Origin: a virus
Strand: one strand, 5' to 3'
Virus record (IMG/VR): IMGVR_UViG_3300042691_015471
Location: 3,498 to 67,497 of that record
Length of the DNA stretch: 64,000 bases
Shown here in pieces: positions 6,609-62,768 of the stretch (its first letter is position 1; each line of letters starts with the position of its first letter). The translations under genes were made by a program, and so were the position numbers. Under the pieces are notes generated by a model. That model was not told where the DNA came from, searched no databases, and saw nothing but the letters and a program-made list of their open reading frames with translations.

Positions 6609-9600
6609 ATGCCGGATCCTATTTTAGATTTGATTCTTAGACGCAAGGCTGCTAAGGGTAAGTTGAATAATCAGAGCTCACAGACTGTGACAATGATGTC
6701 TCCAGCAATTTCTGATGACGAATCATCGCAGACTAAGCTTGACTTGTTTGATATTGACAGAAAGATATCTATGCTAGGGTATAACCCTAACGATGCAGAA
6801 CAAAAGCTTGGAGACCTTCCCGACAATACTCCTGATTTCTTAGTTCATGATTTGTTGAATATAGAGAATCCTGTTGATTTAATTAGGAAGAAGGCTGCTA
6901 TAAAATGGCAAGCACCTTTAGTCAAAAGTGTTGAAAGCATACTAGACCCTGCCCTTAGGAGTAAGGCAATGGAAGAGTTCGACTATATCTACAAGGGCAT
7001 TACTGGTGCTAAGGGTGAGAAATCAAACTACTATCAAAACGCCATCTCAAGTACTAAGGCAGCTGTTGACATTATAAACAAATATAATGGCAGTGGTGAC
7101 AAGGATGAAATGCTTGAAAACCTTAGAATTAATTCAGAGTATGGATTGGCTCAATCATTGATGCAAGATCCATCTGCACAACAACGCTGGGCAGACATAG
7201 GTCTTAATCCAATTCAAGGGATTGCCTTAGATATAAAAGAACTGTTCAGCCCGGAAGGAAAAGGTTACAAGGAACAGGTTGTAAAAAAAGCTGTTTTGCC
7301 TGAGGCAATAAGCGAGCAGAATTTCAAGAAGGCTCAGCTTGAGCGTGAGGGCATCAGCATCCTTGGAAAAGAGATAGACTATCTTCTTGAAAGCAAGTCA
7401 GGTGCCGTAAAGAAGGCAGACGAATTCTATAAGCAGAACGAGGGTAAGCTTGCTGAGCTGGGTGAACTTATCAAGAAAGATTCAAAGCTTTCTGAGGAGA
7501 TGAAGCAAAATCTTACTGGATTTCATACAGAATATAAGCAGGCGATTGAAGGCAAGGATGGAGATGTATTTATCAGTCCGTACAACTTTGATGTGCTCAA
7601 GGCAAAGGTCGAAGACAAAACTGCAAATGCATCTGAGGTTCGTGAGTATAACAATCGTGTAGGCAAACTTAATCAAATAGTCTCCAAATACAAAGGAGAC
7701 TTTGATGCTGCCAAAGAAAACAATGTTGAGCAAAACTCGGCTGTTCGTGAGTACAACAAGATTGTAAATAAAATCCAAGAATCCTATCAATCAGTAAAGG
7801 ACACGGGTAAGCTTTCTGCATGGGCAGAATACCTAGCCAAACAAAAGGGTACACTTGGTGAAAGGTATCCTGAGTACAAGCAACAGGAGTTAGAAGGACT
7901 AGTTAAAGATATTGCAGGTGATAATGTTGGTCTTGGCAAAAAGACTGTATTCCGTTATGCAAATTCTATAGGTGCAGAAACTGTTGATGCAATCCGTAAG
8001 GTATGGAACAACCTGACAATATGGGATGGCGATAAGCTGAGAGATGTAGAGATGGGTGATGCATATCGTAGGCGTATTGAGGATGTGATTATGGGATACG
8101 AGACAGGAACTCAAATGGTGAAAGATGAGCGTACTGTAATACCTGTAGTGCAGAAGGATATCCAAGACGAGCTGAATAAGATTAAGAACAGCAATCTGTC
8201 TGAAGAAGAAAAGTATCAGCAGAACTATAAGATAGTCTCAAAAGCATTTGACGATAAGAAGGTACAGTATGTAGCCAATCCAAAGTATGGCAAATACAAT
8301 ATAACAGCGGATTCCGTCTTGAACACCGTGTCTAGTATGTCAGCACAATTTGTTGGTCAGATGGTGCAAACATATTTGGGAGGTGGATTTGGAAACGTAT
8401 CAAAAGCCAGGAGGTTGCTCACAAGGGGCAGCACTGTCTTCGGTCAGGTATTTGGCAGAGAGTATGACTTAGCTGTACAGCGTGGTGATTCAAACCCATT
8501 TGAACAAGCCTCGACAAAAGCTGGTATTGAGATGCTGAGTGAGTTTGTTTTTGATGACGTTGAGTTTGTCAAGAAAATGTCTCCTGCATTCGCAAGGATT
8601 GCAGGTGATATGAGTCAAGCTGAATGGAAGATGCTCACGTCTGGCAAAATAAAAAGCAACATAGGTAGGGAAATTGCTAGTTCTTTAGAAGCTCTTTTTA
8701 AAGAAGGTACTGTTGAAGAGGGTCTAGCGCAGCTCGGGGGGAACTTTGCAGACAAGTATATGTTCGGTAAAGACAATGATATCACAGAGGGTCTTGACGT
8801 AGCAGTGCTTGCAGGTACTATAGGTTTTGCACCAATGGCACTCATAGGCCTTCCATTAAAATACAGATCAGCCAACATGAGTGACAAGCTCATGATGTAC
8901 CAAGCAGGGTACAAAGCTGACCAGGTTATCGAAGAGCTGAATCGCCAGGTTGGTTATGGCGCTATAACTGCCGAAGAGGCGAAGCAAAGGATAGAGGCTG
9001 TAAAGACCATGAAGGAAGTTGTTGGCGGTATGAGTATGTACGATGCCAATGGCAAACCACTTACAGACAATCAGAAGGCACAGTATGCCTGGAACGAATA
9101 CACCAAGATCAAGGCCAAGAATATTGAGAACTTACCTGAGCAGCAAAGACAAGAGGTTGAGCAGGTAGCTGCAGAAGCAGATCAAAGTAGTAGTAACATC
9201 TTAAACGGTACAGACAATGCCACTTATGAAAGCACAAGGCCCATGCAAGGAATGCCTGCAGAAGGCGGTAGCGTACAACCTCAAGCAACTGTCGAAGGAC
9301 AACAAGAAGAAGGACAAGCCACGCAGCCGACAGCAAATGTTGGCTATAGCGATGGCAGCGGCCAAGAGGTAGACATTGCGGAAGTTCCGCAAGGATTGAC
9401 AGCTATTGCTACCAAGGTGATAGGCGATGCAATCAACACTGCCAAGTCCCTGGTCAAGACCGGGATTAAGGTAAGGGTATTCCAAAACCAAGAGGACTTT
9501 GAAAGAGAATCTGCTAAGCTCGGGCAACAAGCTCGGGGGCAGGGTGTTTTCATGTCCGATGGTAAGCAGGTCCTGATCAACCTGTCAAAGATTAACGAGG

Positions 9601-16974: not shown

Positions 16975-18212
16975 GTTTTTACCAATTGTTTTCAGACGAG
17001 CCTAAGGATAAGGTCAGTGTACTGAATAAGCAAAAGCAGATGACCATCGACTCCCAGAACATGTCATTTGAGGAGTGGAGTAAGAAGTGGGGTGGAATGG
17101 ACGAGGAAGATACTAGGGCATTCATGCCGGGTCGTGTGTACGAGGGCAAGGAAACGTATAAGATATTCCAAAGCAATGACCCTAAGGTATTCGATCAGCG
17201 TATTGGCGTTGAGCAGAAGCGCATTGAGAGGGTAAAGAAAGAGGATGAAATGCTGACCACAGATGCAGCACAGAAGGCAGGCTTCCTGAAAACGTATATG
17301 CAGAACAAGTCAACCCTCGACAGGCTCAACACAGAGATACCTACCAAGTATAATTACACACCTGGCGAAGACCTCAATCCTGTGTCCTATATAAGGGCAG
17401 GTATGATTAAGGAGGCAGAGGAGCGCATCAAGAACAAGCAGGGTATAGGATTGACAGGTGACGAGAAGAATGAGAATGTATGTATCAGGGGTGTGTGTAC
17501 GCTCGCTGCCAACCAGGGTGTAGACTTTAAAAAAGGTTTTGGGCAGTACAAAGATGGAATGGGTATAGACATTGATGAGACGGGTCGTGTGATACCACAG
17601 TTCAATCAGTACTGGTCAAAGGATTACGCAAATGCAGGTTTTGAAAAGTTGCCCAAAGGTGAGAGGCCTAAGCCTGGAGACTTCGCACAGTACTATAACA
17701 AGGAAGGTATTGCCAAGCACATGGAGATGGTGTTAGCTGATAAGGGTAACAACCTTGAGACATTCAATAACTATGAGTTGTACAATACCTATGGTCCTGT
17801 TCAGAGATATGAGCCGGTAAAAAATACAGGAAGAAGTGTGAGGGCTGTAGGTAATACTATCAATTCAATGATGAGTAATAATTGGGGAACAACGGTTGAC
17901 GATACTGAATACTACAGACTGAGTGCTGATGCAGCAGCTGCAGCTTTAGCTAAGAATCAAGGCTACCAAACCAAGGTAAAAGGCAAGCAGGCGTTTGAAT
18001 CCTCTGAGGATTTCAAGCTCCTTGAGAATACCAGCAAGTTTATGCAGCAGAACAAGGATGTCAATATCCTTGGCGATGACCAAGGACTGGTGCAGGACAT
18101 AATCAAAGGAGTCAGTTCGGGGGGAAAGTATGAGGATGTACTAAAGAGTGTAGTACCCAAGGCTAAGAATGCCAAGCTTGTAGAAAGAGTAATCAAAAAT
18201 CTATACCAATGA
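16971..18212 (+). CDS. Hypothetical protein with probable NlpC/P60-CHAP-like Cys-His domain
   Basis: NVCIRGVC...PKPGD...AKHMEMV spacing resembles CHAP/NlpC catalytic motifs. Confidence 0.5.
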   Translation: MSFYQLFSDEPKDKVSVLNKQKQMTIDSQNMSFEEWSKKWGGMDEEDTRAFMPGRVYEGKETYKIFQSNDPKVFDQRIGVEQKRIERVKKEDEMLTTDAAQKAGFLKTYMQNKSTLDRLNTEIPTKYNYTPGEDLNPVSYIRAGMIKEAEERIKNKQGIGLTGDEKNENVCIRGVCTLAANQGVDFKKGFGQYKDGMGIDIDETGRVIPQFNQYWSKDYANAGFEKLPKGERPKPGDFAQYYNKEGIAKHMEMVLADKGNNLETFNNYELYNTYGPVQRYEPVKNTGRSVRAVGNTINSMMSNNWGTTVDDTEYYRLSADAAAAALAKNQGYQTKVKGKQAFESSEDFKLLENTSKFMQQNKDVNILGDDQGLVQDIIKGVSSGGKYEDVLKSVVPKAKNAKLVERVIKNLYQ

Positions 18213-20416: not shown

Positions 20417-20437
20417 CCCCCGAGCTCGGGGGTTTTT
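20417..20437 (+). terminator. Perfect palindrome CCCCCGAGCTCGGGGG followed by a T-tract, between convergent genes
   Basis: 16-bp palindrome plus TTTTT, 6 nt after the stop at 20410. Confidence 0.7.
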
Positions 20438-24738: not shown

Positions 24739-26484
24739 TTAAACAGAATCTGCAAGTGAGGCGAAGCTTTCGATGTCGTTCTTGGTGATCGGCTGACCGA
24801 TGAACTTTGTTTTGTCCGTGCCATCGTTTATCTTTTCTGCAGATACATACCTGCTGTTACCAATATTGAATGTGAAGAAGCTTGCACCAACCTGTCCAGT
24901 GTACTTGAACCTCACCTTCCATCTGTGTATCTCAGTCTGCTTTGTTTCCATGTTCCTATACACAGTGAGGCCGTTGTCAGGAAGGTTGTAGAAGTGGGAG
25001 CTGTCACCAACATCGTATCCATTTGGGACCTTGTACACATTGCTCTTGAGCTCTGACATCTTCTTTGGATGTGCCACTAAGAACACATGCACTCCACAGT
25101 TCCTGGCAAACCTGCTCACGTCAGTCATCATGACCTTGATCTGGTGGTGACGTGTGTCAGTCTGGTTGCTCATGCTCTTCTCAACTGTGCTCATGTTATC
25201 AATCACCAGGATGTTAATACCAAACCTCTTGACCATACCTTTAGCCTTTTCGATGATGCCGTCAATGCTCAGGTCGTTATCGTACAACCGGTAGTACTTG
25301 AAGTGATCGTTCATGAATGGCATCCACTTCTCTAGCTCTTCCTTGGTCAGCCTCTCAGTGTACTGGGATTTGAAAAAGCTTTTGCCGGTGGCGATTTGGT
25401 ACATGTCTGACAGGGCAAATGCTGTGTTAGCCTCCTCAGCTGAGTAAATAAAAGACTTGAGTCCGTGCATCGCAGCAAGACGGAAGATGATATTCTTGAG
25501 GAAGGTTGACTTGCCATGGCCGGGGATGCCGGTGACTAGGGTAACCTGGCCGGGATGCCATATGAACTCGTTGTCCATCTCATACCCAACAGTGAAACCT
25601 TTAGGTGTGCCATCATCAAACAGCTGGTACAGCTCCTCCTTGACACTCAGCGCATCGTCAATCCCTTCCACAGGAAACGGTGCTGCTGCGTTGTAGCATC
25701 TTACTAAGGCTTCCTTACCATCCTTGAGCAGGGTTTCATTGGCATCCTTGTATGGGAGCTCAATGATATAGCAGTTGTCCTTGCCTAGCCTCCTTGCAAG
25801 CTCGTTTCTGAGAGCGATGCCTGCCTCGTCCATATCAGTGGCCAGGTAGATCTTCCTGCCGTCAAAGACCTCAATGAAATCATCTAGCCATTCAAGCCTT
25901 TGAGACCCCTTACTAGCTCCGTTAGGTACTGAGACAGCCGTCTTGATTCCTGCTTCATAAAATGACATTGCATCAATCTCTCCCTCTGTGATAACAAGCT
26001 CACTGGAAGAATTATCACGTACAACGTCAATGCCAAAAGGACCAAGCATAGCGCCACTGACCAGCTTAAAATTTTTATTCCGATCCCGATACTTAATGTT
26101 ATAAACCTCTCCATTGTAGATGTAGTTAAAATGAATTGTGTTTACCTCTGATCCTACCTGAGGCATGTAGTCTATTCCTTCTGATACCTTATATCTGAGA
26201 AGGGTTTGATTGGATATCCCCCGAGCTGCAAACCATGCAATCACATTTGGTGACAGGTTCTTCAGCTCTGCCGGAGGCTTGACGTATTCTTTCTTCTTGT
26301 ATACCTTGGCGGTTCCTGCCCATCCACAGTTGTGGCAATTGTAGATACCCTCCTCAATCAACACGCTCAGGCACGGGTCGCTCTTATGCTTCCTAGTGTG
26401 GGAGCACTGAGGACATGGGACCTTCACGTTGCCGTGCTGTCCTGCCCTTACACTAATCCCCAAGGATTGCAGTTGCTGAATCAT
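24739..26484 (-). CDS. Primase-helicase (T7 gp4/Twinkle type)
   Basis: CPQC/CHNC zinc finger, TEGEIDAMS and ATDMD TOPRIM motifs, KDANE, Walker A GIPGHGKS, LVAHPKK. Confidence 0.93.
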   Translation of the reverse strand: MIQQLQSLGISVRAGQHGNVKVPCPQCSHTRKHKSDPCLSVLIEEGIYNCHNCGWAGTAKVYKKKEYVKPPAELKNLSPNVIAWFAARGISNQTLLRYKVSEGIDYMPQVGSEVNTIHFNYIYNGEVYNIKYRDRNKNFKLVSGAMLGPFGIDVVRDNSSSELVITEGEIDAMSFYEAGIKTAVSVPNGASKGSQRLEWLDDFIEVFDGRKIYLATDMDEAGIALRNELARRLGKDNCYIIELPYKDANETLLKDGKEALVRCYNAAAPFPVEGIDDALSVKEELYQLFDDGTPKGFTVGYEMDNEFIWHPGQVTLVTGIPGHGKSTFLKNIIFRLAAMHGLKSFIYSAEEANTAFALSDMYQIATGKSFFKSQYTERLTKEELEKWMPFMNDHFKYYRLYDNDLSIDGIIEKAKGMVKRFGINILVIDNMSTVEKSMSNQTDTRHHQIKVMMTDVSRFARNCGVHVFLVAHPKKMSELKSNVYKVPNGYDVGDSSHFYNLPDNGLTVYRNMETKQTEIHRWKVRFKYTGQVGASFFTFNIGNSRYVSAEKINDGTDKTKFIGQPITKNDIESFASLADSV

Positions 26485-33877: not shown

Positions 33878-34591
33878 CTAGAATCTTAGGTTTATCTTTT
33901 CCCTGCGCCTGTAGTTGAAGATGTCCTCCAGGAGCTCACGGTACTTTTCTGTGCTGATGCAGTCAACAAGGGCTGTAGGCTGTAGTTTGATCTTTGCCAT
34001 CAGTTCGTCCATGCTGAAGCCTTTCTTGTCGATTACAGAGATGATGGCGTACACAAATGAGCGCCTGCGGTAGCCGGTGTAATAGGCTTTGATCTGCATG
34101 AGGTAGTTTGCGATCCTTTCGGCTTTTCTGAGGTTGACAATTTTGAACTTGCCGTTGTTGAACTCTTCGTATCCCCTGCTCTTGTCATTGTTGCTCAGGA
34201 GGATCAGGTTCACTTGGTGATCAAAGCCATACTTTTCTTGGAAAGCTTTGTAGGCGATGTAATCTGTGTAGCCGTTTTTAACGTAGCTGTCCAGGTAGTC
34301 TTTCGGTCCCCAGTTCTTGCTGTAGGCGTTCATTACCTGCACCTCCCGGATGCCATACCCTTCCACTGTGATGTACCGAACCGGAAGGTTGAGCTGTTTG
34401 CATGCTTCGAGTCTGTGCTGGCCATCAATCACCTCAAGCTTTTCATTGACGATGATGGGATTGAACAGGTAGACCTCCTGCATGGACTCCTTGAGCTTGC
34501 CCAGGTGGGTTTGGTTCAGATCTCTGTTGTCATCAAGGCTGCGGAACTGGTTGTAGTTCCTGGTCGTTAGAACTTTTGTCATGGTGGACAT
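33878..34591 (-). CDS. ParB/Srx-like N-terminal domain protein
   Basis: NR.LN..H, PIIVNE...IDGQHRLEAC. Confidence 0.85.
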   Translation of the reverse strand: MSTMTKVLTTRNYNQFRSLDDNRDLNQTHLGKLKESMQEVYLFNPIIVNEKLEVIDGQHRLEACKQLNLPVRYITVEGYGIREVQVMNAYSKNWGPKDYLDSYVKNGYTDYIAYKAFQEKYGFDHQVNLILLSNNDKSRGYEEFNNGKFKIVNLRKAERIANYLMQIKAYYTGYRRRSFVYAIISVIDKKGFSMDELMAKIKLQPTALVDCISTEKYRELLEDIFNYRRREKINLRF

Positions 34592-34814
34592 GTTCGGATA
34601 CCCCGTCCCCGGCTTTGGTTTCAAAATAAAGGCTGCGTACATGAGCGCCCAGATCCATATCGTTGGGCGTATTGTAGATGAGATCTACTGGCACTGCGAT
34701 AAAGTCCATTGTATGGCACGAATACGTGCGTTTTTGAGAGTTATAAGACACAATAAAAAAGCCCCCACCATAAAAATGGCGAGGGGATAAACCTGCCTGC
34801 GAAAGCTGGGTTAG

Positions 34815-34943
34815 TAGTCAGGACAGGATTCGAACCTGCAAGAGAGTCTGATTGGTGAGCATGCGATACCTTTACTCCTCTCTAAGTGGACGCCCTCAGT
34901 ATTTGGGTTTTCCTTTAGCGTTTACCAATTTCGCCACCTGACT
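34815..34943 (-). tRNA. tRNA-like RNA (pseudo-tRNA) with an expanded, non-canonical anticodon/variable region
   Basis: Acceptor AGTCAGG/CCTGACT, D-arm TGGCGAAATTGGTAAACGC, T-arm GCAGG-TTCGAAT-CCTGT; ~75 nt between the arms with no 7-nt anticodon loop. Confidence 0.75.
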
Positions 34944-34988
34944 AAAAAACCCCAAGCCTAGAAAAGCTCGGGGATAAAAAAACACACA

Positions 34989-35213
34989 CTAAAACAATTT
35001 CTTCACGGCCTCTTTTCTCCAATCTTCATTGATGTGTGGCTCAATGTCTTCCCATAGGAAAGTCTTGAGGAGGGACCTAATTTTTTGCTCCTGCCTATAT
35101 CCTTCGTCCCACTTACGCTGCTCGTCAATCATGGACCAGTAGTAGTCGTGGTTGTGGATCAGGTTGATCAGTTCATTCATTTCATTCATGGCGCTTAGTT
35201 TTCGTATGCCCAT
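34989..35213 (-). CDS. Hypothetical early protein
   Basis: HDYYWSMIDE...W..G pattern; start probably ~35189. Confidence 0.55.
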   Translation of the reverse strand: MGIRKLSAMNEMNELINLIHNHDYYWSMIDEQRKWDEGYRQEQKIRSLLKTFLWEDIEPHINEDWRKEAVKKLF

Positions 35214-35389
35214 TTTTTAACGATGAGCTCTTCGGTTGAATAATCGATGTAGACTACCTTGTCCCCAATGTGGATGTACATAGCATGCGGGCTGCGGATG
35301 CTGATGTGGGTATCCCAATTTTCCGGATCAATGTTGATGTCTACAAACCCGTTTTTCTGTTCTGTCACGTTGATGTCAATTGATTTCAT
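35195..35389 (-). CDS. Hypothetical early protein (64 aa)
   Basis: ATG 35389 preceded by AAAACCACACACC. Confidence 0.6.
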   Translation of the reverse strand: MKSIDINVTEQKNGFVDINIDPENWDTHISIRSPHAMYIHIGDKVVYIDYSTEELIVKKWAYEN

Positions 35390-35405
35390 GGTGTGTGGTT
35401 TTGAT

Positions 35406-35454
35406 TGGGAGCTGGCCCTGGTAGCGAACCAGGTGCGGTCATTCCTGCCAGCTC
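35406..35454 (-). ncRNA. tRNA-like acceptor/T-arm minihelix, copy A
   Basis: GAGCTGGC..CCTGG-TTCGCTA-CCAGG-GCCAGCTC-CCA. Confidence 0.7.
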
Positions 35455-35460
35455 GGGGGG

Positions 35461-36171
35461 TTATACAAGGGAGTGACGTATCTCTTCTAGGGTAGTACCC
35501 ATCTCTTCTGCCAACCACTCTGTGAAGGCTTCAAGCTTAGACTCCCGGATGATAACATCTGAGGAGGTAGAGAAGACATTGGAGGTTAGGCCGAAAGAAA
35601 AGATCAGTTCAAAGGGGCATTCAACTTCGCCATCGGCAATGGAGTCGACAAAGTCGTTGAACTTGTGCTTCCAGGTTACATCTGACCAACGGCCTGTGGA
35701 CCATCCGCTTGCCAAGGTGGTGTATCCATCTTCAACAACGGTATCCCAATATCCTCTCCAGCCATCTGTGCGCACGTAGTTGAAACCTTCAACGCCATTG
35801 GGTGAAGCCTCTTCCCACCATTCAGTATCCCTGAAGCCGAACTCCTGGCACCAGATGTACTTTTTGTTTTCGCCATTCTGGCAAACGATCACCGTGTTGG
35901 CATATTTCCAGGCTTCGCTCTCGCAGCTCTCGCAGTACACCTCGCCACTCTTGGTGAAGTAGACAGGATCACGGTCTTCATTGATCTCTTTTTTACAGCA
36001 GGAGCACAGCGTGTAAAAGTCTGTGATGATGCCGTCCAGGCCATACTCAAACGTGTAGCCATGCTCTTCAACTTGTTTCTTGAGCTCTTCGAGCTTGTCG
36101 TATCCTGTTTCATCTCCGAAATTTTCAATCAGGATCTGTACTTCGCTAGGCAGGTTTTCAAAATTGTTCAT
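35461..36171 (-). CDS. Acidic early protein with CxxC/CxxC zinc ribbon
   Basis: CSCC...YCESC; very Glu/Asp-rich. Confidence 0.65.
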   Translation of the reverse strand: MNNFENLPSEVQILIENFGDETGYDKLEELKKQVEEHGYTFEYGLDGIITDFYTLCSCCKKEINEDRDPVYFTKSGEVYCESCESEAWKYANTVIVCQNGENKKYIWCQEFGFRDTEWWEEASPNGVEGFNYVRTDGWRGYWDTVVEDGYTTLASGWSTGRWSDVTWKHKFNDFVDSIADGEVECPFELIFSFGLTSNVFSTSSDVIIRESKLEAFTEWLAEEMGTTLEEIRHSLV

Positions 36172-36184
36172 GTTAGTGTGTGTT

Positions 36185-36235
36185 TGGTGAGAACCTGTTG
36201 CGGGAATCGAACCCGCATGATGACCATCACAGGTT
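36185..36235 (-). ncRNA. tRNA-like acceptor/T-arm minihelix, copy B
   Basis: AACCTGT..TGCGGG-TTCGATT-CCCGCA-ACAGGTT-CTCACCA. Confidence 0.72.
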
Positions 36236-36240
36236 GGTGG

Positions 36241-36519
36241 CTACTGGCAGCAAAGCTCCCAGGGCTGGAGGCCTTCAAGGCTTGACTCGTCCAGGCCCAT
36301 GGACTGCAGGATGAAGGCTGCAAGCTTCCTGCGTACCGGTGTACTGCTGAGGTCATTGGATCCGATGGCATCGGCTACATCTGAGCCTCTCATGCCTAGC
36401 GTCCTAGCGCAGAACTTAGAGTCTTGGCCTAGGTGGAAGGATCCATACTTGGTTACCAGGGTCCAATCGTGGCCGTAGTAGGTTTCTGAGGTCTCAATGA
36501 TGGGTTTTGAAATTTTCAT
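36241..36519 (-). CDS. Hypothetical early protein
   Basis: 92 aa, AC-rich leader. Confidence 0.6.
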   Translation of the reverse strand: MKISKPIIETSETYYGHDWTLVTKYGSFHLGQDSKFCARTLGMRGSDVADAIGSNDLSSTPVRRKLAAFILQSMGLDESSLEGLQPWELCCQ

Positions 36520-36530
36520 GGTGTGTTGTT

Positions 36531-36586
36531 TGGTGAGGACTGCCTCCGGGAGCGAGCCGGAATCACTTCCAAAAGTGGGGCAGTTC
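36531..36586 (-). ncRNA. tRNA-like acceptor/T-arm minihelix, copy C
   Basis: GAACTGCC..TCCGG-CTCGCTC-CCGGA-GGCAGTCC-TCACCA (one mismatch in the outer stem). Confidence 0.65.
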
Positions 36587-36611
36587 GGGGGTTAAACTCT
36601 ATAGTAGAGAG

Positions 36612-36769
36612 CTACTGACAAAAAGGATCCTGTAGAGCGCCAATAATAGCAGCACCAAGAACAAGAGCAATTGCAAGGCGTATAATCTGTTTCATTGTTT
36701 CCGTTTTAGACTAGCGTAAAAAATAATGTTTGCGAATAGAAAGCCAAAGAGGGTGGTGAAGAGGATCAT
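36612..36769 (-). CDS. Two tiny hydrophobic ORFs (36692-36769, 25 aa; 36612-36695, 27 aa)
   Basis: MILFTTLFGFLFANIIFYASLKRKQ and MKQIIRLAIALVLGAAIIGALQDPFCQ, chained by ATGA overlaps. Confidence 0.5.
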
Positions 36770-36993
36770 GGCTCATATTTTTCAAAGTGATCATTAAGCT
36801 TGTCAACCTCTACAGGGCACTTGCCATTGAGAACCTCGTTTAGGGTTACAGCCGCAAAAAGATTAAGCTGATAGACAACGTGGCTTCTTTTTAGCTCACT
36901 TGTGAGAGCTTCAACAGTGATGGGGTAATGCTTGGCGTAATTGTCCATGGCCATGATGGCCTGAGGCTTGAGCCTCTGATACAAATTTTTCAT
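36766..36993 (-). CDS. Hypothetical early protein
   Basis: MKNLYQRLKP...; AC-rich leader. Confidence 0.6.
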   Translation of the reverse strand: MKNLYQRLKPQAIMAMDNYAKHYPITVEALTSELKRSHVVYQLNLFAAVTLNEVLNGKCPVEVDKLNDHFEKYEP

Positions 36994-37005
36994 ATGTGTG
37001 TGATT

Positions 37006-37058
37006 TGATGAGGAACTGGAGGCAGTATCGCTCTGCCTTCGCTCATTGCTTCCAGTTC
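37006..37058 (-). ncRNA. tRNA-like acceptor/T-arm minihelix, copy D
   Basis: GAACTGGA..GGCAG-AGCGATA-CTGCC-TCCAGTTC-CTCATCA. Confidence 0.65.
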
Positions 37059-37065
37059 GGGGGGA

Positions 37066-37383
37066 TTATCTGAGATTAACCTCAGCCGTCATACGTGCAA
37101 CCTCTTCAGGTGACTCATCACCATAGGGTAAGTAGCAGTCATATGCTAGAACATCGTAGAAGACCTTGAGGGCAACAACATAGTTTCTAGGCGAAATAGT
37201 TTTGTAGAAGCTCAGCACCCTTGTAGATAATTCGTTGTAGTAGTAGCCATCAAACAGGCCGTACATTTGATTTATCATTTCTTTTGGGGCGTTATCTAGC
37301 ATCATCTCACTGATCAGGTAATTAACCCGGCTCAATGTCTCTGCTGTCATGTTTGCGTGGCGGTCAAATGTTCTGTAGTTCAT
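37066..37383 (-). CDS. Hypothetical early protein
   Basis: 105 aa, AC-rich leader, directly after the hammerhead. Confidence 0.65.
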   Translation of the reverse strand: MNYRTFDRHANMTAETLSRVNYLISEMMLDNAPKEMINQMYGLFDGYYYNELSTRVLSFYKTISPRNYVVALKVFYDVLAYDCYLPYGDESPEEVARMTAEVNLR

Positions 37384-37396
37384 GTTCGTGTGTTTT

Positions 37397-37448
37397 AGTG
37401 TTTCGTCCTTCCGGGACTCATCGGTACGGGGAAAAACCCGTAGACACT
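37397..37448 (-). ncRNA. Type III hammerhead ribozyme (U4C core variant)
   Basis: Minus strand AGTGTC^TACGGG-TTTTTC-CCCGTA-CCGATGA-GTCC-CGGAA-GGAC-GAAA-CACT; stems I, II and III all Watson-Crick paired; GUC cleavage triplet. Confidence 0.88.
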
Positions 37449-37864
37449 CACCTTGGCTGCCTTTAGCCTCAGGACTACACTCAACACAAACGATAGATCA
37501 GGATGTGGTGGTGAAGGCAGCTAGGTGTTGTGTTACTCATTAAGTGGCGGTTAGGACTCGCTCCTCATAAAGAGGCTTTGTGGGTTGCTTTCGCAGTGCC
37601 GTTATTGGGGCCATGTGGCCGAGCGTGACGTGGCTTCTCTCCGCTTAATTTTCACTACCGTATTTTCAAAGACCTGCAAAACCAATGACTAAAACAATGA
37701 TTTCGAGAGTAAAATTGAGTAGAAAATATTTTTCCGCAAAATGTGGATTAAAATATGACAGTAAAAAACGCTAGACAAATCCTCTACAAGTCAATAGAAT
37801 CAACAACGAAAACGTTTTCGTACTTTTTCGTAAAAATGTTTTTTGATAGTTAATGTGCAAAACT

Positions 37865-38070
37865 CTAAAATAGAGATTTAAGGTATTTATTCGCTATTGA
37901 ATCGTTTATGTAAAACATACGACACAGCGCAACAAGACCTGGATCTTCTTCACACTTGTAGTTGTTTACATGGTTGTTGAATTCAGCTTCATTTTTTGAT
38001 TCAATCTCAACGATTAATTCTTTTAAGTCTTTTACGATTTCTTGCTTAGATAATTCGAAGTAGCTATTCA
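37865..38070 (-). CDS. Hypothetical protein (AT-rich; start uncertain)
   Basis: MNSYFELSKQE... within ORF 37865-38098. Confidence 0.4.
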
Positions 38071-38241
38071 TTTGGTTAGATTTTTGGGACTTAGACACTT
38101 ACAGGCAGTAAATATGGCAAATACTAATTGAGCTGCATTGGTTAATACACGTTTATGGTTGGTGTTTTTCCCACTACTCAATTGATAGTGGTTTTTGTGT
38201 AGCCGTAAAAACACATCTGACATATTAATAATTTTATACAT

Positions 38242-38532
38242 ATGAAAACAGTGGTTTTTGAGGCTCAAGTCGTACATAAATTAGTCGGTAAAAAATGGGT
38301 TCATGAGATACTTGTAATGCTGCTGCCAGCATCTCGCAGATACAACAAATTAGCACAACTGATACCAGAGATTAAACCATCAGCACTATCAAACACACTG
38401 AAAAAAATGATAGCATCAGGCTTGGTCTATCAGGTTGGTTCGCTGTACCACCTGACTGATTATGGAAGAACAGTGGCTGAAATCGTATTTTGCTATATCA
38501 AAAGCGTTTATAAGCAGCTCGGGGGTCTATAA
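38242..38532 (+). CDS. Second HxlR-like winged-helix regulator
   Basis: LVGKKWV.EIL...RRYNKL...IPEIKPSALSNTLKKM...YHLTDYG. Confidence 0.75.
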   Translation: MKTVVFEAQVVHKLVGKKWVHEILVMLLPASRRYNKLAQLIPEIKPSALSNTLKKMIASGLVYQVGSLYHLTDYGRTVAEIVFCYIKSVYKQLGGL

Positions 38533-38850
38533 CCTCTTGTGTAACAGATAGCGCCTTACACTATAGAGAAAGTCTCTACCTGCAGGAGCAAGGGAGTAGA
38601 TCATGCTTTCCCTGGTAACAAAGCCAGAATTGATTAGGTGTTTCAGGCTGTGCTTGACATAGGTATATGATATCTGATGATGGCACTGAGCAGCATGTGC
38701 AACGATGGTGGCAATGCGGGGTGTATTGAGATGTTTGATGGAATAGAGGCAGAAGAGCTCAGCAAAGTTGAGAGCTCGGGGGGATCCATATTTGCGGGAG
38801 TATAGATCATTAGCTTTCTGGTAATGGAATATGTACTTCTCAATCTTCAT
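38527..38850 (-). CDS. Winged-helix (MarR-like) protein
   Basis: LKHLINSGFV...YSLAPAGRDFL. Confidence 0.6.
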   Translation of the reverse strand: MKIEKYIFHYQKANDLYSRKYGSPRALNFAELFCLYSIKHLNTPRIATIVAHAAQCHHQISYTYVKHSLKHLINSGFVTRESMIYSLAPAGRDFLYSVRRYLLHKRL

Positions 38851-38865
38851 TGGGTATGTGTTTAG

Positions 38866-39040
38866 TGTAGGGGATCAGGGATGTATAGGTAAGGGTTAAG
38901 GGTTTATATTGTCAAGGGGATCAATGTTGGGGATCATGGGTTAAGGGGCTATGAGGTCAGTGATAGGTTAAAGGGGGTTAGGCATGGGTTAGGTTAAAGG
39001 TTGGGTTGTGTTGGGAGGAAGGGAGGAAGGGGGGTTGTTG
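38866..39040 (+). repeat. G-tract-rich low-complexity non-coding segment
   Basis: Recurrent GGG(G) runs with TTAAGGG, GGGGATC and GGGTT units; very few C on +. Confidence 0.7.
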
Positions 39041-51689: not shown

Positions 51690-51718
51690 GCCCTGAGTTT
51701 TCTAGCTCGGGGCTTTTT
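51690..51718 (+). terminator. Intrinsic terminator
   Basis: GCCCTGAG..CTCGGGGC then TTTTT. Confidence 0.65.
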
Positions 51719-51771: not shown

Positions 51772-54700
51772 ATGCCGACCGTACCCAGTATATCCTTCAA
51801 CGTCAGATACGATCTGACTGGTGCCCCCACACTTGTACTGACAGATGCGACTACATTCCCTGTCGGTGCAGTAGGTATTTTTACAATTACACAGCCGGAC
51901 GGCTACGTAAGGACTGGTAACTTTGCTACTCCTGATATTACCAGTTCGGGGGGCACTCTTTCTACAGGACTTAGACTCAGTTCAACTGGCGGTGTCCAGT
52001 GCGGAACATACAACATAAAGTACGAGATCAGGACCACTGACCTTGTGATCAGTACGTTCACTAGGAACTTCGTATTCCAATACGAACCTGTTGGATTGGT
52101 GATGAAAGAGAACTTTGATGTGTTCACCCCGAACCTGTCGTATTCGGATAGTACTATCTACACCGTTCCCAACTACAGCAACACTGCTCCTACCAGACTG
52201 TGGACAGCTGTGAGCATCCCTACGGGGACCAAGACAAGTACAACTGCAGCGATCAACCTGCAGCATAACGGAAGCTATTACGATGCAGTGTACACGATTA
52301 CACTTGCATCTACACTCACATACTCTCACCAGACATATGCATGGTTAAGTATACAGGAGACAATCAGTAAAACGGTTACAGCTGAGGCGTGTACCCCCGA
52401 GCCGATTGAAGACCTGATCCCCATGATCGAGGTGTTGAGACAGAAGTCCATTGAATGTAATGGCGACTTCCCTGACTTTGAGAAAGCTCAGACACTGTTC
52501 AGTCATTTGACTGACATGCTGAGAGTCTTGCTGATCGGGGGTGCTACTCAAGAAGGAATCTATGACGTGTACGAGGACCTCATGGCGATCCTGCGCAATC
52601 ACGTTCCATGTGTTCACACTAATCTACCAATACCTCCATACGACTTAGGAGACTATGCAGTCTCTCAGTTTCCTATTGATGCAGCGTTCTGTCAGAATGT
52701 TGGCGATGGAGTTAATACGGTTTACAGTATTTCACACAACCTAAACGATGACTGTGTTCTCGTTCAGGTGTACGAGGTTACGAGCGGTGCTCAGGTCCTA
52801 ACGGACGTGACTATCACTAGTAACAACTCGGTGAATGTATCCTTTGCCACTGCTCCTGCCACTGACGCTTACAAGGTTGTAGTGCATTCTGGTAATGGAG
52901 GAATGGTTGGACCGGGTGTCGCTGCAGGTGGAACCACTGGTCAGTATCTTAGGAAGACTAGTGCTACTGATTACGATACGTATTGGGACACTCTCAATGC
53001 TGCAGACATTCCAGATCTAAGCGCCACGTACATGACCAAGGCTGTGTATGACACAGACAATGACGGCATTGTTGATGACGCTGAGAAGATCGCAATCATT
53101 GCACGTAACAGCACAGGATCTACAATACACAAGGGCAAGATTGTTTACCTGCAGGGTTCCACGGGAAACAGACCTAACATTCTACTTGCACAGGCAAACT
53201 CAGAGGCTTCTTCTAGCAAGACCTTTGGTGTGGTTGTTGAGGATATCGCACACAATGCAGACGGTCAGGTAGCTGCTATAGGTACTCTTCACGACTTGGA
53301 TACAAGGAGTAATGCTCCTCATCCGTTCACTACTGATACACTGCTTGATGGAGACAAGGTGTGGCTGTCTGCTACAGACGCAGGATACATAACAAGGACT
53401 CCTCCTGTTCAGCCTAACCATACGGTGTTTATAGGATTTGTTGCTAGGACTACTCCCAGCTTTGGTAGGATTATCTATAACATACAGAACGGTTTTGAAC
53501 TTGATGAGCTGCATAACGTCCTCATCACATCTGCAGCTGACAAGGATATTCTATACTACGATTTGGCTACGGGTCTTTGGAAGAACACAGCCAAATCTGG
53601 GTGGCTCGGGGGAACTGCTTCACAGTTTGTGAAGGGTGACGGTACGCTTGACAGCAGCACATATCTGACAACAGGAACTGCAGCGTCTACGTATGTGGCG
53701 CTCGGTGGAAGCTATTCTAATCCATCATGGATTACAGCCTTGGCATGGTCTAAGATAACAGGAGCACCTGCATTCTTGACAACAGAAACCGATCCTATAT
53801 TCACAGCACATCCTGCTTTTGGAATCACAGGAACCAAGATATCTAACTGGGACAGTGCTTATGGATTCACATCTGCCTTCCCATCTCAGTCCGGCAACTC
53901 AGGTAAGTTCCTTACTACTAACGGTAGTGCTCTGTCATGGGCGGATGTTGTCAGTGGTGTGTCTTCGTTTAACACACGAACTGGCGCAGTTACACTGACA
54001 TCTGGTGACGTTACAGGAGCATTGGGATATACACCAATAAGTACTAATATCTATACTGATAATGGTACGTTGACTGGGGATAGGACTATTACAATGGGAG
54101 CATTCACGCTTTCATTTGAGAAAGATATTTTTGTTAATAATAATAGAGTCGGAAGGGGTAATGGTAATGATTTTAGAACTGTTGTTCTTGGACAATTAGC
54201 TGGAAGCTCTACAACAACTGGTAACCAAAATGTATTTGTAGGATTCAGTGCTGGTAATTTAGCTACCACCGCTAATTCAAATGTACTACTAGGTGCATTT
54301 GCAGGTAGAATTATTGACACTGGATCTGGCAATACAATTGTTGGACACGTATCAGGATACTCTTTGACCAGTGGCACTTTCAATACTTTTATTGGTCGTC
54401 AATCTGGGTTTGGAATAACCACTGGAATCCATAATACAATAATTTCTACTATATCAAGTGGGTCTATTGGTATAACAACTGGTTCATATAATACGGTAAT
54501 AGGGTCACAGGTATCTGGTCTTACTGCAACTCTATCCAATAACATCATTCTCGCAGACGGTCAAGGCAATATTAGAATACGTGCATGGGATACTGGTAAC
54601 GTAGGTATCGGAACCACCACCGATGCAGGGTATAAGTTGGATGTGAATGGAACGGCTAGGGTGAGTGGGGATGTTACATTTGATAATGCGGTTTACTTTA

Positions 54701-60617: not shown

Positions 60618-62768
60618 ATGAAGGTACTATCGGATATACTACACAAGGCTGGGATACTTAAGGAAGGTGCTGAGGCTTACAGCTCGGGGGGATACTCAGT
60701 TGTTGTAAGAAATGCAACAACTCAAAGGTTTGAGACGGTAGCTTCAACTGCGTTTGCGAATATCTATACTTCAAACGGAACCCTTACAGGGAATCGTACG
60801 GTAACCCTGTCTGGTAGTTATCTTGATATTGCTGGAACAACAACCACTAGGTTCTTCTCAACTGGCAACGTAACGGTCGGTGGTACTGTAGATGCCGGAT
60901 TCAAGCTTGATGTTAATGGCGAGATCCGTGGTGTGAGTAGAGTTTCTGCTTCGCTTGGTGGTCTTACAAACAACTGCCTATACACATACATATCAAACCA
61001 CTGCGGTAGTGCTGGTTATATTGGATTCGGGTTTGTAAACACTACCAATCCAGCGCTAGCTGATTCGGTGTTTGACATCTATCAGGGTCCTGTAGCTGCA
61101 CCGATTGCCAACCTTTTTAACATCAAGCATTCTCTTCTGAATGCAAGCTATGTTCAGCCTCAGGCAATCCTAGGCATCACTACCACTATAAATCAGTCTG
61201 CTACTGCTACTGGCGATATCAGGGGGATCTACTATAACCCAACGGTGACAAGTGTGATAGGTAATCACTATGCATGGGAGTCTACCTCAGGTAAGATCAA
61301 GGTATCAGACCTGTCCGGTACCGGATCAAGGATGGTAGTTGCTGACAGCTCGGGGGTATTATCCACATCCGCTCTACCTACATCTACTAATATATACAAC
61401 AGTGATGGTACACTGACAGGGAATAGGACGGTTGCCTTAGGTGGTTATAAGTTATCTGTAGGGGTTCCTACGACAAGCTTCGCTTCTGGCTCATTTGAAT
61501 TGGGCATTAATGCTGCTTCTGCGTTTAGCCAAGTAATTCACAACACTAATGGAGGAGGTGCAGGTGCAATTGTATTTGGCGCTAATAATAGGTACATGCA
61601 TATTGGTATGGCTGGAACTTCTCTAGCTTGGCCTGTGAATGGTGCGGCCTTTATACATAACACATACGCAGATTTATATTTCACTGGGGGTAGTTCTGGA
61701 CAACCGGGAACAGGAGATGTTATCATGACAATGTTCCGCTCCACTAAGAACGTCACCGTTGGAGGAATTACAGACTCCGGCTACAAGCTTGATGTGCAGG
61801 GGACAGCGAGGGTGACAGGAGCTGTGCGAGTAGATACGAATGGTTTTAACAGAACTGGAAGTGCAGGCTCAGGTTCAATATCTATTGGAAATGTAAGTGG
61901 TTTATCGACTGCAACTGCTGATGGTAGTATTTCTATTGGGTCAACTTCAAGTGCCACCGGGTTAGATTCTACTGCATTAGGTACTGAAGCAACTGCGTCA
62001 TCTCAATCATCTATTGCGATAGGGAGAGGTGCAATTTCAAATGGTGTTGGAGGAATTGCAATCGGAGTTGGAGCAAGAGCAAGTGGAACAGAATTAGTAA
62101 TCGGTAATCGTTGGCAACCTATTAATGAAGTATTCTTTGGGACTGGTAGCAATAGGTGGTCAGGTAATACACAGTTTGCTGGAGATGGCGCATCCTGTGC
62201 AATCAACGGTAGCGGTGCATTTGGTACAGACTTCGCTGGTGGTAACATTACCATCGCAGGTGGTAAAGGAACAGGCGCAGGTACTCCCGGTGACGTTATA
62301 ATCTCTACAGCAACAGCAACAGCTTCGGGAACAACCCTTCAATCTCTCACACAGAGGGTATGGATTAAGGGCGAGAATGGGAATGTAGGGATTGGTGCTA
62401 GTCCGAATGCTTCTTATAAACTAGACGTAGCAGGAACAGGCCGCTTCACCAACATGCTGTCCGTAATCACCACAGGAACAACCAACGAGGTTGCCCTGTT
62501 CAAGTCCACAGAACCATACATAACAGTCGAGGCAGCAGGTGGTTCTAACTCTGCATCCATCTTCCTCAAGCCTTCAACATCTAGTCAGAACGCAACCATC
62601 CAGAACAGGACGGGTGGTGGACTGGAGTTCTATGTGAACGCAGACTACACCAACGCCAAGATGACCATCAAGGGGACAACGGTTAATATCAGAAGTCTTC
62701 CAACCTCGGCAACGGGACTCAGCTCGGGGGATATATGGAATGACGGAGGAACACTTAAGGTAGCTTAA
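60618..62768 (+). CDS. Second modular tail fibre
   Basis: Shares modules with 51772-58341; C-terminal LPTSATGLSSGDIWNDGGTLKV. Confidence 0.75.
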   Translation: MKVLSDILHKAGILKEGAEAYSSGGYSVVVRNATTQRFETVASTAFANIYTSNGTLTGNRTVTLSGSYLDIAGTTTTRFFSTGNVTVGGTVDAGFKLDVNGEIRGVSRVSASLGGLTNNCLYTYISNHCGSAGYIGFGFVNTTNPALADSVFDIYQGPVAAPIANLFNIKHSLLNASYVQPQAILGITTTINQSATATGDIRGIYYNPTVTSVIGNHYAWESTSGKIKVSDLSGTGSRMVVADSSGVLSTSALPTSTNIYNSDGTLTGNRTVALGGYKLSVGVPTTSFASGSFELGINAASAFSQVIHNTNGGGAGAIVFGANNRYMHIGMAGTSLAWPVNGAAFIHNTYADLYFTGGSSGQPGTGDVIMTMFRSTKNVTVGGITDSGYKLDVQGTARVTGAVRVDTNGFNRTGSAGSGSISIGNVSGLSTATADGSISIGSTSSATGLDSTALGTEATASSQSSIAIGRGAISNGVGGIAIGVGARASGTELVIGNRWQPINEVFFGTGSNRWSGNTQFAGDGASCAINGSGAFGTDFAGGNITIAGGKGTGAGTPGDVIISTATATASGTTLQSLTQRVWIKGENGNVGIGASPNASYKLDVAGTGRFTNMLSVITTGTTNEVALFKSTEPYITVEAAGGSNSASIFLKPSTSSQNATIQNRTGGGLEFYVNADYTNAKMTIKGTTVNIRSLPTSATGLSSGDIWNDGGTLKVA

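Follow-up and report, generated by a model that had tools for sequence, protein, structure and literature searches.

Covarying minihelices resembling a tRNA acceptor stem and T-arm between the small genes of a phage array: possible RNA punctuation of a polycistronic message

We analyzed a 64,000-nt stretch of viral DNA (bases 3498–67497 of the single 67,497-bp IMG/VR record IMGVR_UViG_3300042691_015471, hereafter the window), in which four short structured elements, E1–E4, separate small genes and resemble a tRNA acceptor stem stacked on its T-arm. Proteins encoded by the window include a crAss-type muzzle C-terminal domain, a P22-like portal, an SU10-type capsid protein, a Toprim-DnaB primase/helicase, a RecE/YqaJ exonuclease, an Erf/Rad52 annealing protein, a tyrosine integrase, a ParB-like protein, a DNA methyltransferase and two giant virion proteins. 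Genes lie on the minus strand between ~20 and 39 kb, and all four elements are read on that strand within a run of seven small open reading frames (ORFs; Table 1). Six of these ORFs matched no family in a Pfam and PHROG scan, the 27-aa ORF 36612-36695 lying outside that scan. A blastn search of a phage collection returned no close DNA relative of the window. Related phage loci that were compared with it are labeled L001, L012, L033 and so on.

Table 1. Positions of the small-gene array, its intercistronic elements and associated features in the window
Feature	Position	Strand	Setting	Score or detail
E1	35399..35460	-	helix 35454-35409; between stop of ORF 35461-36171 and ATG 35389	64.6 bits
E2	36182..36241	-	helix 36235-36192; between stop of ORF 36241-36519 and ATG 36171	58.4 bits
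E3	36527..36592	-	helix 36586-36537; between the 27-aa membrane-peptide ORF and ATG 36519	50.8 bits
E4	37003..37064	-	helix 37058-37013; between stop of ORF 37066-37383 and ATG 36993	68.9 bits, E 1e-16
Type III hammerhead-like ribozyme	37395..37450	-	13 nt before ATG 37383	RF00008, 38.6 bits (gathering score 48.5)
Small orphan gene array	34989..37383	-	seven genes
Array ORF	37066-37383	-
Array ORF	36766-36993	-
Array ORF	36612-36695	-		27 aa
Array ORF	36241-36519	-
Array ORF	35461-36171	-
Array ORF	35195-35389	-
Array ORF	34989-35213	-
Intrinsic terminator	34950..34973	-	closes array	5' arm CCCCGAGC; terminator scan
tRNA-Leu-like gene	34815..34943	-	right after terminator	RF00005, 36.3 bits; ARAGORN silent
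C-rich/G-rich motif, example copies	6027-6036, 8730-8739, 18113-18122, 26219-26228
C-rich/G-rich motif, example copies	51942-51951, 60680-60689, 61346-61355, 62720-62729

The elements share one layout. A stop codon is followed after 0–2 nt by CCCCC, the outer 5' arm, an 11–17-nt linker and a 5–6-bp stem with a 7-nt loop; the abutting outer 3' arm then leads through C-UCA-YCA-AA and a CA-rich stretch to the next ATG. E1 carries the C-run and reads GAGCTGGC / linker AGGAATGACCGCA / CCTGG TTCGCTA CCAGG / GCCAGCTC, giving an 8+5-bp helix (GAGCUGGC/GCCAGCUC, loop UUCGCUA) with the tail CCAAUCAAAA. E2 (AACCTGT / GATGGTCATCA / TGCGGG TTCGATT CCCGCA / ACAGGTT) forms a 7+6-bp helix with a canonical T-arm, UGCGGG UUCGAUU CCCGCA, the linker GAUGGUCAUCA and the tail CUCACCAAAC; it has CCACC instead of the C-run, and its outer stem is unlike those of the other three. 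E3 (GAACTGCC / 17-nt linker / TCCGG CTCGCTC CCGGA / GGCAGTCC) has the C-run, the loop CUCGCUC and the tail, and its linker folds as a 5-bp hairpin whose sequence differs in the orthologous element of L012. E4 (GAACTGGA / AGCAATGAGCGAA / GGCAG AGCGATA CTGCC / TCCAGTTC) combines the C-run with a bulged 8+5-bp helix, the loop AGCGATA, a 13-nt linker containing a mini-stem, and the tail CUCAUCAAAU. The stack totals 13 bp in each element. The pairings and the 13 stacked positions agree with an earlier sequence-only reading of this DNA, save that the outer stem of E3 (GAACTGCC/GGCAGTCC) holds an A.C mismatch or bulged A, which is kept in the E3 subgroup. That reading had also regarded the four outer stems as different sequences; this holds for E2, while the outer stems of E1, E3 and E4 all have GARCTG after CCCCC.

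A strict Watson-Crick descriptor (7+6, 8+5 or 6+7 bp; 7-nt loop; 8–20-nt 5' linker; abutting arms) bore out the proposed geometry. Over both strands of the 64-kb window it matched three times, at E1, E2 and E4 on the minus strand, compared with 0.07 ± 0.35 (maximum 2) in 40 dinucleotide shuffles. In RNAfold the expected fold was the energy minimum of E1, E2 and E3, and for E4 it was the centroid, with z-scores of -2.8, -0.5, -0.7 and -2.4 for E1 to E4. The conserved tail TCAYCAAAYMACACAC did not occur elsewhere in the window above chance. None of the elements scored as a tRNA: ARAGORN called no tRNA gene in the window, and the sole tRNA match of an Rfam cmscan over 34000-39000 (E<=10) was at 34815-34943. 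At the same threshold no ribozyme family matched E1–E4, and Rfam 15 held no family matching them.

It is scarcely credible that E1–E4 are plain intrinsic terminators, a behavior that the sequence-only reading had allowed for. They are GC-rich hairpins placed after stop codons, but no U-run follows any of them, on which ground we exclude this function. The terminator scan listed none of the four and nothing inside the array, its sole minus-strand hairpins being 34973-34950 and 34785-34762. Elements of this kind are moreover followed by the family tail CUCAUCAAAA and occur in up to eight copies within 3 kb, each before a gene.

Homologues were retrieved with a pattern based on the shared arms, which fixed GAACTG...CAGTTCCTCA and yielded 36 stretches from ~22 IMG/VR contigs. 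A covariance model, R1, was built from 31 copies and searched over 171 kb at E<=1. This gave 123 matches, 82 of them distinct, in 30 loci from ~20 uncultured phage contigs, each on the same strand as its neighbors. Within the window, R1 matched at the places of E1–E4 and nowhere else. Structure in this family is under selection, as the sequence-only reading had proposed from the four elements. In the R1 alignment (fitted to the model), pairing holds in 98.1% of the 935 stem cells; shuffles give 72.3 ± 1.0% and slid partners 23–47%. All 12 pairs show changes on both sides, amounting to 212 double-change cells. RNAalifold recovered the same 12 pairs from an unfitted MAFFT alignment. R1 also found outer arms that are unrelated in sequence yet complementary, such as GAGAGC/GCTCTC, AAGTAG/CTACTT and ATCCCC/GGGGAT. 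A search of the full-text literature returned no description of the elements or of their motif, sequence matches being to unrelated primers alone. On this search the minihelix family is undescribed, and it is in no Rfam model.

The length of the stack is more constant than its composition. Among 81 parsed copies, the total is 13 bp in 42, 12 bp in 16 and 14 bp in 14, most of the last being 13 bp plus a U-A pair inside the loop. The linker junction falls after base pair 6, 7 or 8, with 8+5, 7+6 and 6+7 arrangements all present. A constant overall length with a shifting junction suggests a ruler that starts at the loop. Copies fall into classes by linker and loop. The class of E2 has a (G/A/C)AUGGU... 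linker and a true T-loop, UUCGA(C/U/G)U. That of E1 and E4 has the linker AG(G/C)nnnnn(G/C)CGAA with a 2–3-bp mini-stem and an AGCGAWA or UUCGYUA loop. In the class of E3 the linker is a 4–5-bp hairpin of many sequences and the loop is YUCGYKA. As linker and loop differ between classes, the family has no common ribozyme core.

Likeness to a tRNA acceptor stem and T-arm varies accordingly in strength between these classes. Set beside a minihelix substrate, in which a 12-bp acceptor and T-stem stack is capped by a 7-nt T-loop, the family has a continuous stack and a 7-nt loop, and its stack is mostly 13 bp long. The CG at loop positions 3–4, which the sequence-only reading had taken as the mark of a T-loop, is nearly universal in the family, but the fuller resemblance is confined to the E2 class, with its GGTTCGAYTCC T-arm and ATGGT linker. 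The T-arm motif GGTTCRANYCC is present in E2 (GGGTTCGATTCCC) and in all copies with the ATGGT linker, and absent from E1 (GGTTCGCTACC), E3 and E4, which share just the loop CG. The CCA-like ends described earlier did not survive comparison: CCA adjoins the helix in E1 alone, the tails correspond to a conserved CUCAYCAAA leader, and the family lacks the 3' RCCA after the discriminator that bacterial ribonuclease (RNase) P RNA contacts.

Placement between genes is fixed. We compiled 74 distinct contexts from the best 112 rows after dropping duplicates, counting ORFs of at least 30 codons. An upstream ORF was present in 72 of the 74, and its stop codon ended within -3 to +4 nt of the C-run in 65, at 0–2 nt in 51. 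Copies begin 5–7 nt past the stop codon, and the next ORF-opening ATG lay 18–21 nt past the helix in 67 contexts. The stop codon falls within the helix base in ~5 copies; in three of them TAA makes up its opening three bases, and in others it overlaps the base. Across five whole records the elements were limited to one ~3-kb array on one strand, with 8, 8, 4, 2 and 1 copies.

Self-cleaving ribozymes, which are common between phage genes, occupy other slots of the same arrays. The window array opens with a type III hammerhead-like ribozyme whose core is CCGAUGAG instead of CUGAUGAG (U4 to C), a variant also present in L012, where stem I differs in sequence and remains paired. Other related arrays open with a canonical hammerhead or a twister. 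Rfam identified type III hammerhead-like elements in L005, L019 and L028 (L028 duplicates L019), and a twister-P1-like element at the start of the L001 array scored 47.5 bits, under its gathering score. With a sequence pattern for the hammerhead core, type III-like copies were found at the array starts of L005, L012, L019, L027, L033 and L042, and type I hammerheads in internal slots of L001, L012, L016, L033, L034 and L039; the L001 type I copy appears in Rfam as a weak RAGATH-1 hammerhead (25.5 bits, E 0.011). At the internal hammerheads the upstream stop codon is inside or just before the ribozyme. Their cut, GUC/UUAACC with the slash at the cleavage site, lies 19–20 nt before the next ATG in five of six, the exception being L033, and this distance equals that from minihelix to ATG. 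The minihelix tail (CUAACCAAAC or CUCAUCAAAAC) also resembles the sequence after the hammerhead cut (UUAACCAAAC).

In one case the two kinds of element exchange places behind the same gene. The window gene ending ..PWELCCQ-stop is followed by E2, and its L012 homologue (..PWELCCE-stop, 73% identical) by a type I hammerhead whose cut site is 19 nt ahead of the following ATG. L033 was rejected as a second orthologous swap, with ~150 nt between the hammerhead and the homologue of ORF 35461-36171. The swap also bears on the earlier suggestion that the elements are decoys or sponges for tRNA-targeting defense nucleases. Their partial tRNA shape, and their setting in an array of orphan genes of likely counter-defense type, would suit such a role. 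They nevertheless have no anticodon arm, the usual target, and no conserved CCA; their position between cistrons is fixed, and they are interchangeable with hammerheads, which could not be decoys. We therefore regard the decoy role as very improbable.

On these sequence comparisons, we consider that E1–E4 have about an even chance of being intercistronic RNA punctuation that acts by cleavage of one polycistronic message. This message would run on the minus strand from ~37.45 kb to the terminator at 34.95 kb and carry small accessory or early genes. The 12–13-bp coaxial helix, 5'-side linker and 7-nt loop of each element would present an acceptor stem stacked on a T-arm, which host tRNA-end-processing enzymes may treat as a tRNA mimic. 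The cut would most probably fall immediately 3' of the helix and be made by RNase Z, with RNase P cutting at the 5' base as a less likely course; as the specific enzyme, RNase Z can be named only tentatively. RNase Z homologues occur in both of two Bacteroidota metagenome-assembled genomes (MAGs) in which a window gene has relatives. The tRNA genes of the phages themselves encode no CCA, and their CU(A/G)A trailers resemble the element tails; this pattern implies that an endonuclease processes their 3' ends.

Two further observations favor a cut on the 3' side. Where the stop codon lies within the helix base, a 5'-side cut would delete it, and the minihelix tail is similar to what follows the hammerhead cut. 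By analogy, an internal hammerhead cuts at its own 3' side and would leave the upstream gene with its stop codon and a structured 3' end, and we place the minihelix cut at the 3' base for this reason. Cleavage there would let the upstream cistron keep its stop codon and gain a protective 3'-terminal hairpin, while the downstream cistron would start with a ~19-nt unstructured CA-rich leader. In related phages, type I hammerheads in these slots would achieve this by cleaving themselves. To our knowledge, the purpose of intergenic ribozymes in phages has never been settled. Perreault et al. (2011) suggested a role for gene-flanking phage hammerheads in the processing of long transcripts (PMC3088659). 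The hammerheads of that account share with the minihelices the arrays, the slots, the distance to ATG and the proposed role of producing gene-length mRNAs. The minihelices, unlike them, have no ribozyme core or Rfam ribozyme match and would need a host or phage nuclease.

Comparable structures have been described in other systems. In plant mitochondria, t-elements (Hanic-Joyce 1990, as cited in PMC1920247) guide RNase Z and RNase P to the cuts from which mRNA ends arise (Forner et al. 2007, PMC1920247). Their borders coincide with mRNA ends, RNase Z producing the downstream 5' end and RNase P the upstream 3' end, and the same article describes a proposal that simple acceptor-like stem-loops act like t-elements. 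Both t-elements, as presented there, and the minihelices are reduced tRNA-like folds that retain a T-arm and lie within mRNA precursors. The minihelices differ in belonging to a bacterial virus, in their much smaller size of ~46–50 nt, in lacking a cloverleaf and in standing before nearly every gene; their outer arm and flanks are conserved in sequence, GGTTCRANYCC occurs in one class alone, and their processing is only predicted. Acceptor/T-arm hairpins are also classic RNase P substrates (McClain, Guerrier-Takada and Altman 1987, as described in PMC11143913). These model hairpins, in that description, and the minihelices have in common a coaxial acceptor and T-stem and a T-loop, without D or anticodon arms. 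The minihelices differ in their 10–17-nt 5'-side linker, their usual 13 bp, the lack of RCCA and a C at leader position -1.

Several observations weigh against punctuation by tRNA-processing enzymes. Among the 935 stem cells only 8 are G.U or U.G and 5 are A.C or C.A, while a genuine tRNA of these phages has two G.U among seven acceptor pairs. The stems thus show no RNA-type excess of wobble pairs, and a DNA hairpin fits at least as well; a DNA hairpin, or mutual correction of the arms, would give the same Watson-Crick picture. A true T-loop and a D-loop-like GG belong to the E2 class and are absent from E1, E3 and E4, the tails do not conserve CCA, and the stack most often has 13 rather than 12 bp. 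The outer stem and C-run are conserved in sequence although neither RNase P nor RNase Z needs them, and part of the outer-stem conservation is built in, because the retrieval pattern fixed both arms. Most copies of the C-run motif lie within genes and have no hairpin partner. The slot-swap argument consists of one clean orthologous case.

One alternative is an insulator or stabilizer that acts by structure and without specific cleavage, blocking exonucleases in the manner of REP elements and separating the translation of adjacent cistrons, with tRNA likeness as a matter of ancestry. The stems are stable and almost purely Watson-Crick, the fixed distance to ATG puts the helix at the edge of the ribosome footprint, and the loops and linkers differ among three or four classes, so that a single enzyme-recognition surface is not obvious. 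We give this explanation a small chance of being right. It would leave unexplained the interchange with self-cleaving ribozymes in the same slots, the constant 12–13-bp length with its moving junction, the conserved loop CG and the pairing of linker with loop class.

The flank of the helix led to a second signal. CCCCCGARCTG, which comprises the 5' flank and the outer arm in E1, E3 and E4, complements the word most over-represented in the genome, cRGYTCGGGGG. CCCCGARCTG with at most one mismatch occurs in 37 copies, compared with 4.2 ± 2.2 expected, and GYTCGGGGG in 29 plus-strand and 5 minus-strand copies, compared with ~0.14 expected, an over-representation of ~200-fold. Strand bias recurred in all five related records (22/5, 6/20, 24/7, 18/4 and 4/21; reversed-pattern control 0–1). 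The 94 copies in ORFs divided into 22, 40 and 32 by reading frame; all three frames being used, an origin as a protein motif was ruled out. A simple orientation rule was rejected, neither genome strand (124:34) nor sense strand (101:57) fitting cleanly, though the genome strand fits rather better. The G-rich form lies on the G-skewed strand throughout, and the one position that varies is, on the C-rich strand, a purine. In a 3.4-Mb Chitinophagaceae MAG, where a window gene has a 64%-identical relative, there were no copies, against 6 of the reversed control. Owing to this absence the motif is not a host-wide signal in that lineage, and a host Chi-like origin was rejected for this one candidate host lineage.

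The motif also forms the stems of terminators, at 20419-20434, at 34950-34973 and near 51700. The first of these is a perfect 16-nt palindrome, CCCCCGAGCTCGGGGG, followed by a plus-strand T-run at the point where plus- and minus-strand gene blocks run into each other, and resembles a bidirectional terminator made from the motif. In L016, at position 2617 on the minus strand, a C-rich copy (CCCGAACTG) stands just before a type I hammerhead, so that the motif can occur beside both kinds of slot element. The minihelix does not require it, as E2 and several relatives do without it.

One idea is that the motif is a phage-specific priming or initiation site. In that case CCCCCGA-R-CUG (template GGGGG...) would be a start site for the Toprim-DnaB primase/helicase or for an unrecognized RNA polymerase, a possibility of low probability. 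The over-representation and its bias in related records, the use of all frames, the absence from the candidate-host-lineage MAG, the G-skewed strand and the purine on the C-rich strand all speak for it, as does the near-absence of G.U, which fits a constraint at the DNA level. The crAss-like phage phi14:2 has no known early promoter motif, and its virion polymerase prefers single-stranded DNA, according to 10.1101/2020.03.07.982082. It is comparably improbable that such a signal starts each array mRNA with a 5' protective hairpin and elsewhere primes the lagging strand. E2 and several copies keep the fold and placement without the motif, and in some copies the stop codon, not the C-run, starts the helix. 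No virion RNA polymerase was detected in the genome by a DFDxD motif search, PHROGs or PDB sequences, among which the 3311-aa protein had no relative. A start before every gene would make the ribozymes in sister slots hard to explain, and ~20% of motif copies face the other way. A hairpin promoter of the N4 type has a 5–7-bp stem and a 3-nt loop, whereas the minihelix has 13 bp, a bulge and a 7-nt loop. We hold it doubtful that cRGYTCGGGGG is a phage-encoded, strand-specific start signal on a G-rich template that was co-opted in the minihelix arrays.

Comparison with related loci showed the array to be hypervariable. One close relative, L001, was reached through a neighboring protein with 86% identity. 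It is colinear with the window on both sides (74–80% identity) but has no nucleotide match across 35182-37650, and its array holds one more such element. The gene at 36612-36695, for a hydrophobic or membrane peptide (..LQDPFCQ-stop), is kept in L001; after it the window has E3 and L001 just a CA-rich leader without an element. A 236-aa cassette protein had no relative among the viral contigs searched.

This variability recalls the sequence-only reading's alternative that the elements are recombination joints for shuffling gene cassettes, akin to T4 PeSL or attC sites and perhaps served by a nearby tyrosine recombinase. The array is the one stretch without nucleotide similarity to L001 inside colinear flanks, similarity to L012 ends at the 5' edge of E2, L011 has a copy with 91% identity to E3 between unrelated genes, and a tyrosine recombinase gene is 2.5 kb away. 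That recombinase, however, matches just generic Xer/phage-integrase models, at 25–30 bits against cut-offs of 220 and 335, and no integron-integrase model. By eye, the arms CCCGAAC...GTTCCTC do not fit the attC cores RYYYAAC...GTTRRRY. The strict sense orientation and the constant spacing to stop and start codons indicate a role in expression and not in recombination, E3 is in the interior of a homology block and not at its edge, and shuffling could be a passive result of 60-nt conserved repeats. Recombination as the function is unlikely; as a by-product, shuffling at the elements is plausible, and to that extent the alternative stands.

In T4-type promoter-early stem-loop (PeSL) cassettes, stem-loop modules lie between small orphan genes in a hyperplastic region. 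The minihelices are likewise repeated intergenic stem-loop modules among small orphan genes and are tied to modular shuffling. They differ from PeSL in their tRNA-like geometry and in having no promoter room, or promoter signal above chance, between helix and ATG. Promoter-like hexamers occurred at chance level in a sigma-70 scan, and TAnnTTTG, a Bacteroidota -7 motif, had 2 copies on the minus strand of 33–40.5 kb, about the chance number. Upstream of the hammerhead, a non-coding leader (37460-38047, minus strand) is 76–81% identical to L001 and contains a GATCTATC / GGTCGATTTATCACC-like stretch common across arrays. This leader may be the array promoter or a further structured RNA.

Beyond the terminator, the tRNA-Leu-like gene has ~64 extra nt in its anticodon region, the trailer CUAACCC and no encoded CCA. 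The extra nucleotides could reflect an intron, an insertion or gene decay; L001 carries a normal tRNA-Trp(CCA) in its place. Another odd tRNA-like sequence immediately precedes tRNA-Leu(AAG) in the related phage G002 (L039:19165-19262, plus strand). Its acceptor is 8 bp long, its T-arm canonical and its D region oversized, and ARAGORN is silent on it.

The C-rich/G-rich motif is a separate signal that deserves study in its own right. If it is a start signal, one short motif would organize both lagging-strand priming and gene-by-gene expression, with each early mRNA marked by a tRNA-shaped end. For the minihelices, their occurrence in the same slots, at the same distance from ATG and once behind the same gene as a hammerhead suggests that the two are interchangeable tools for cutting a message, and it makes the function of phage ribozymes directly testable. 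The family, with at least 82 distinct copies and strong covariation, could join annotation pipelines. Punctuation of transcripts by tRNAs is known from mitochondria; if the minihelices do act by cleavage, it would extend to bacterial viruses.

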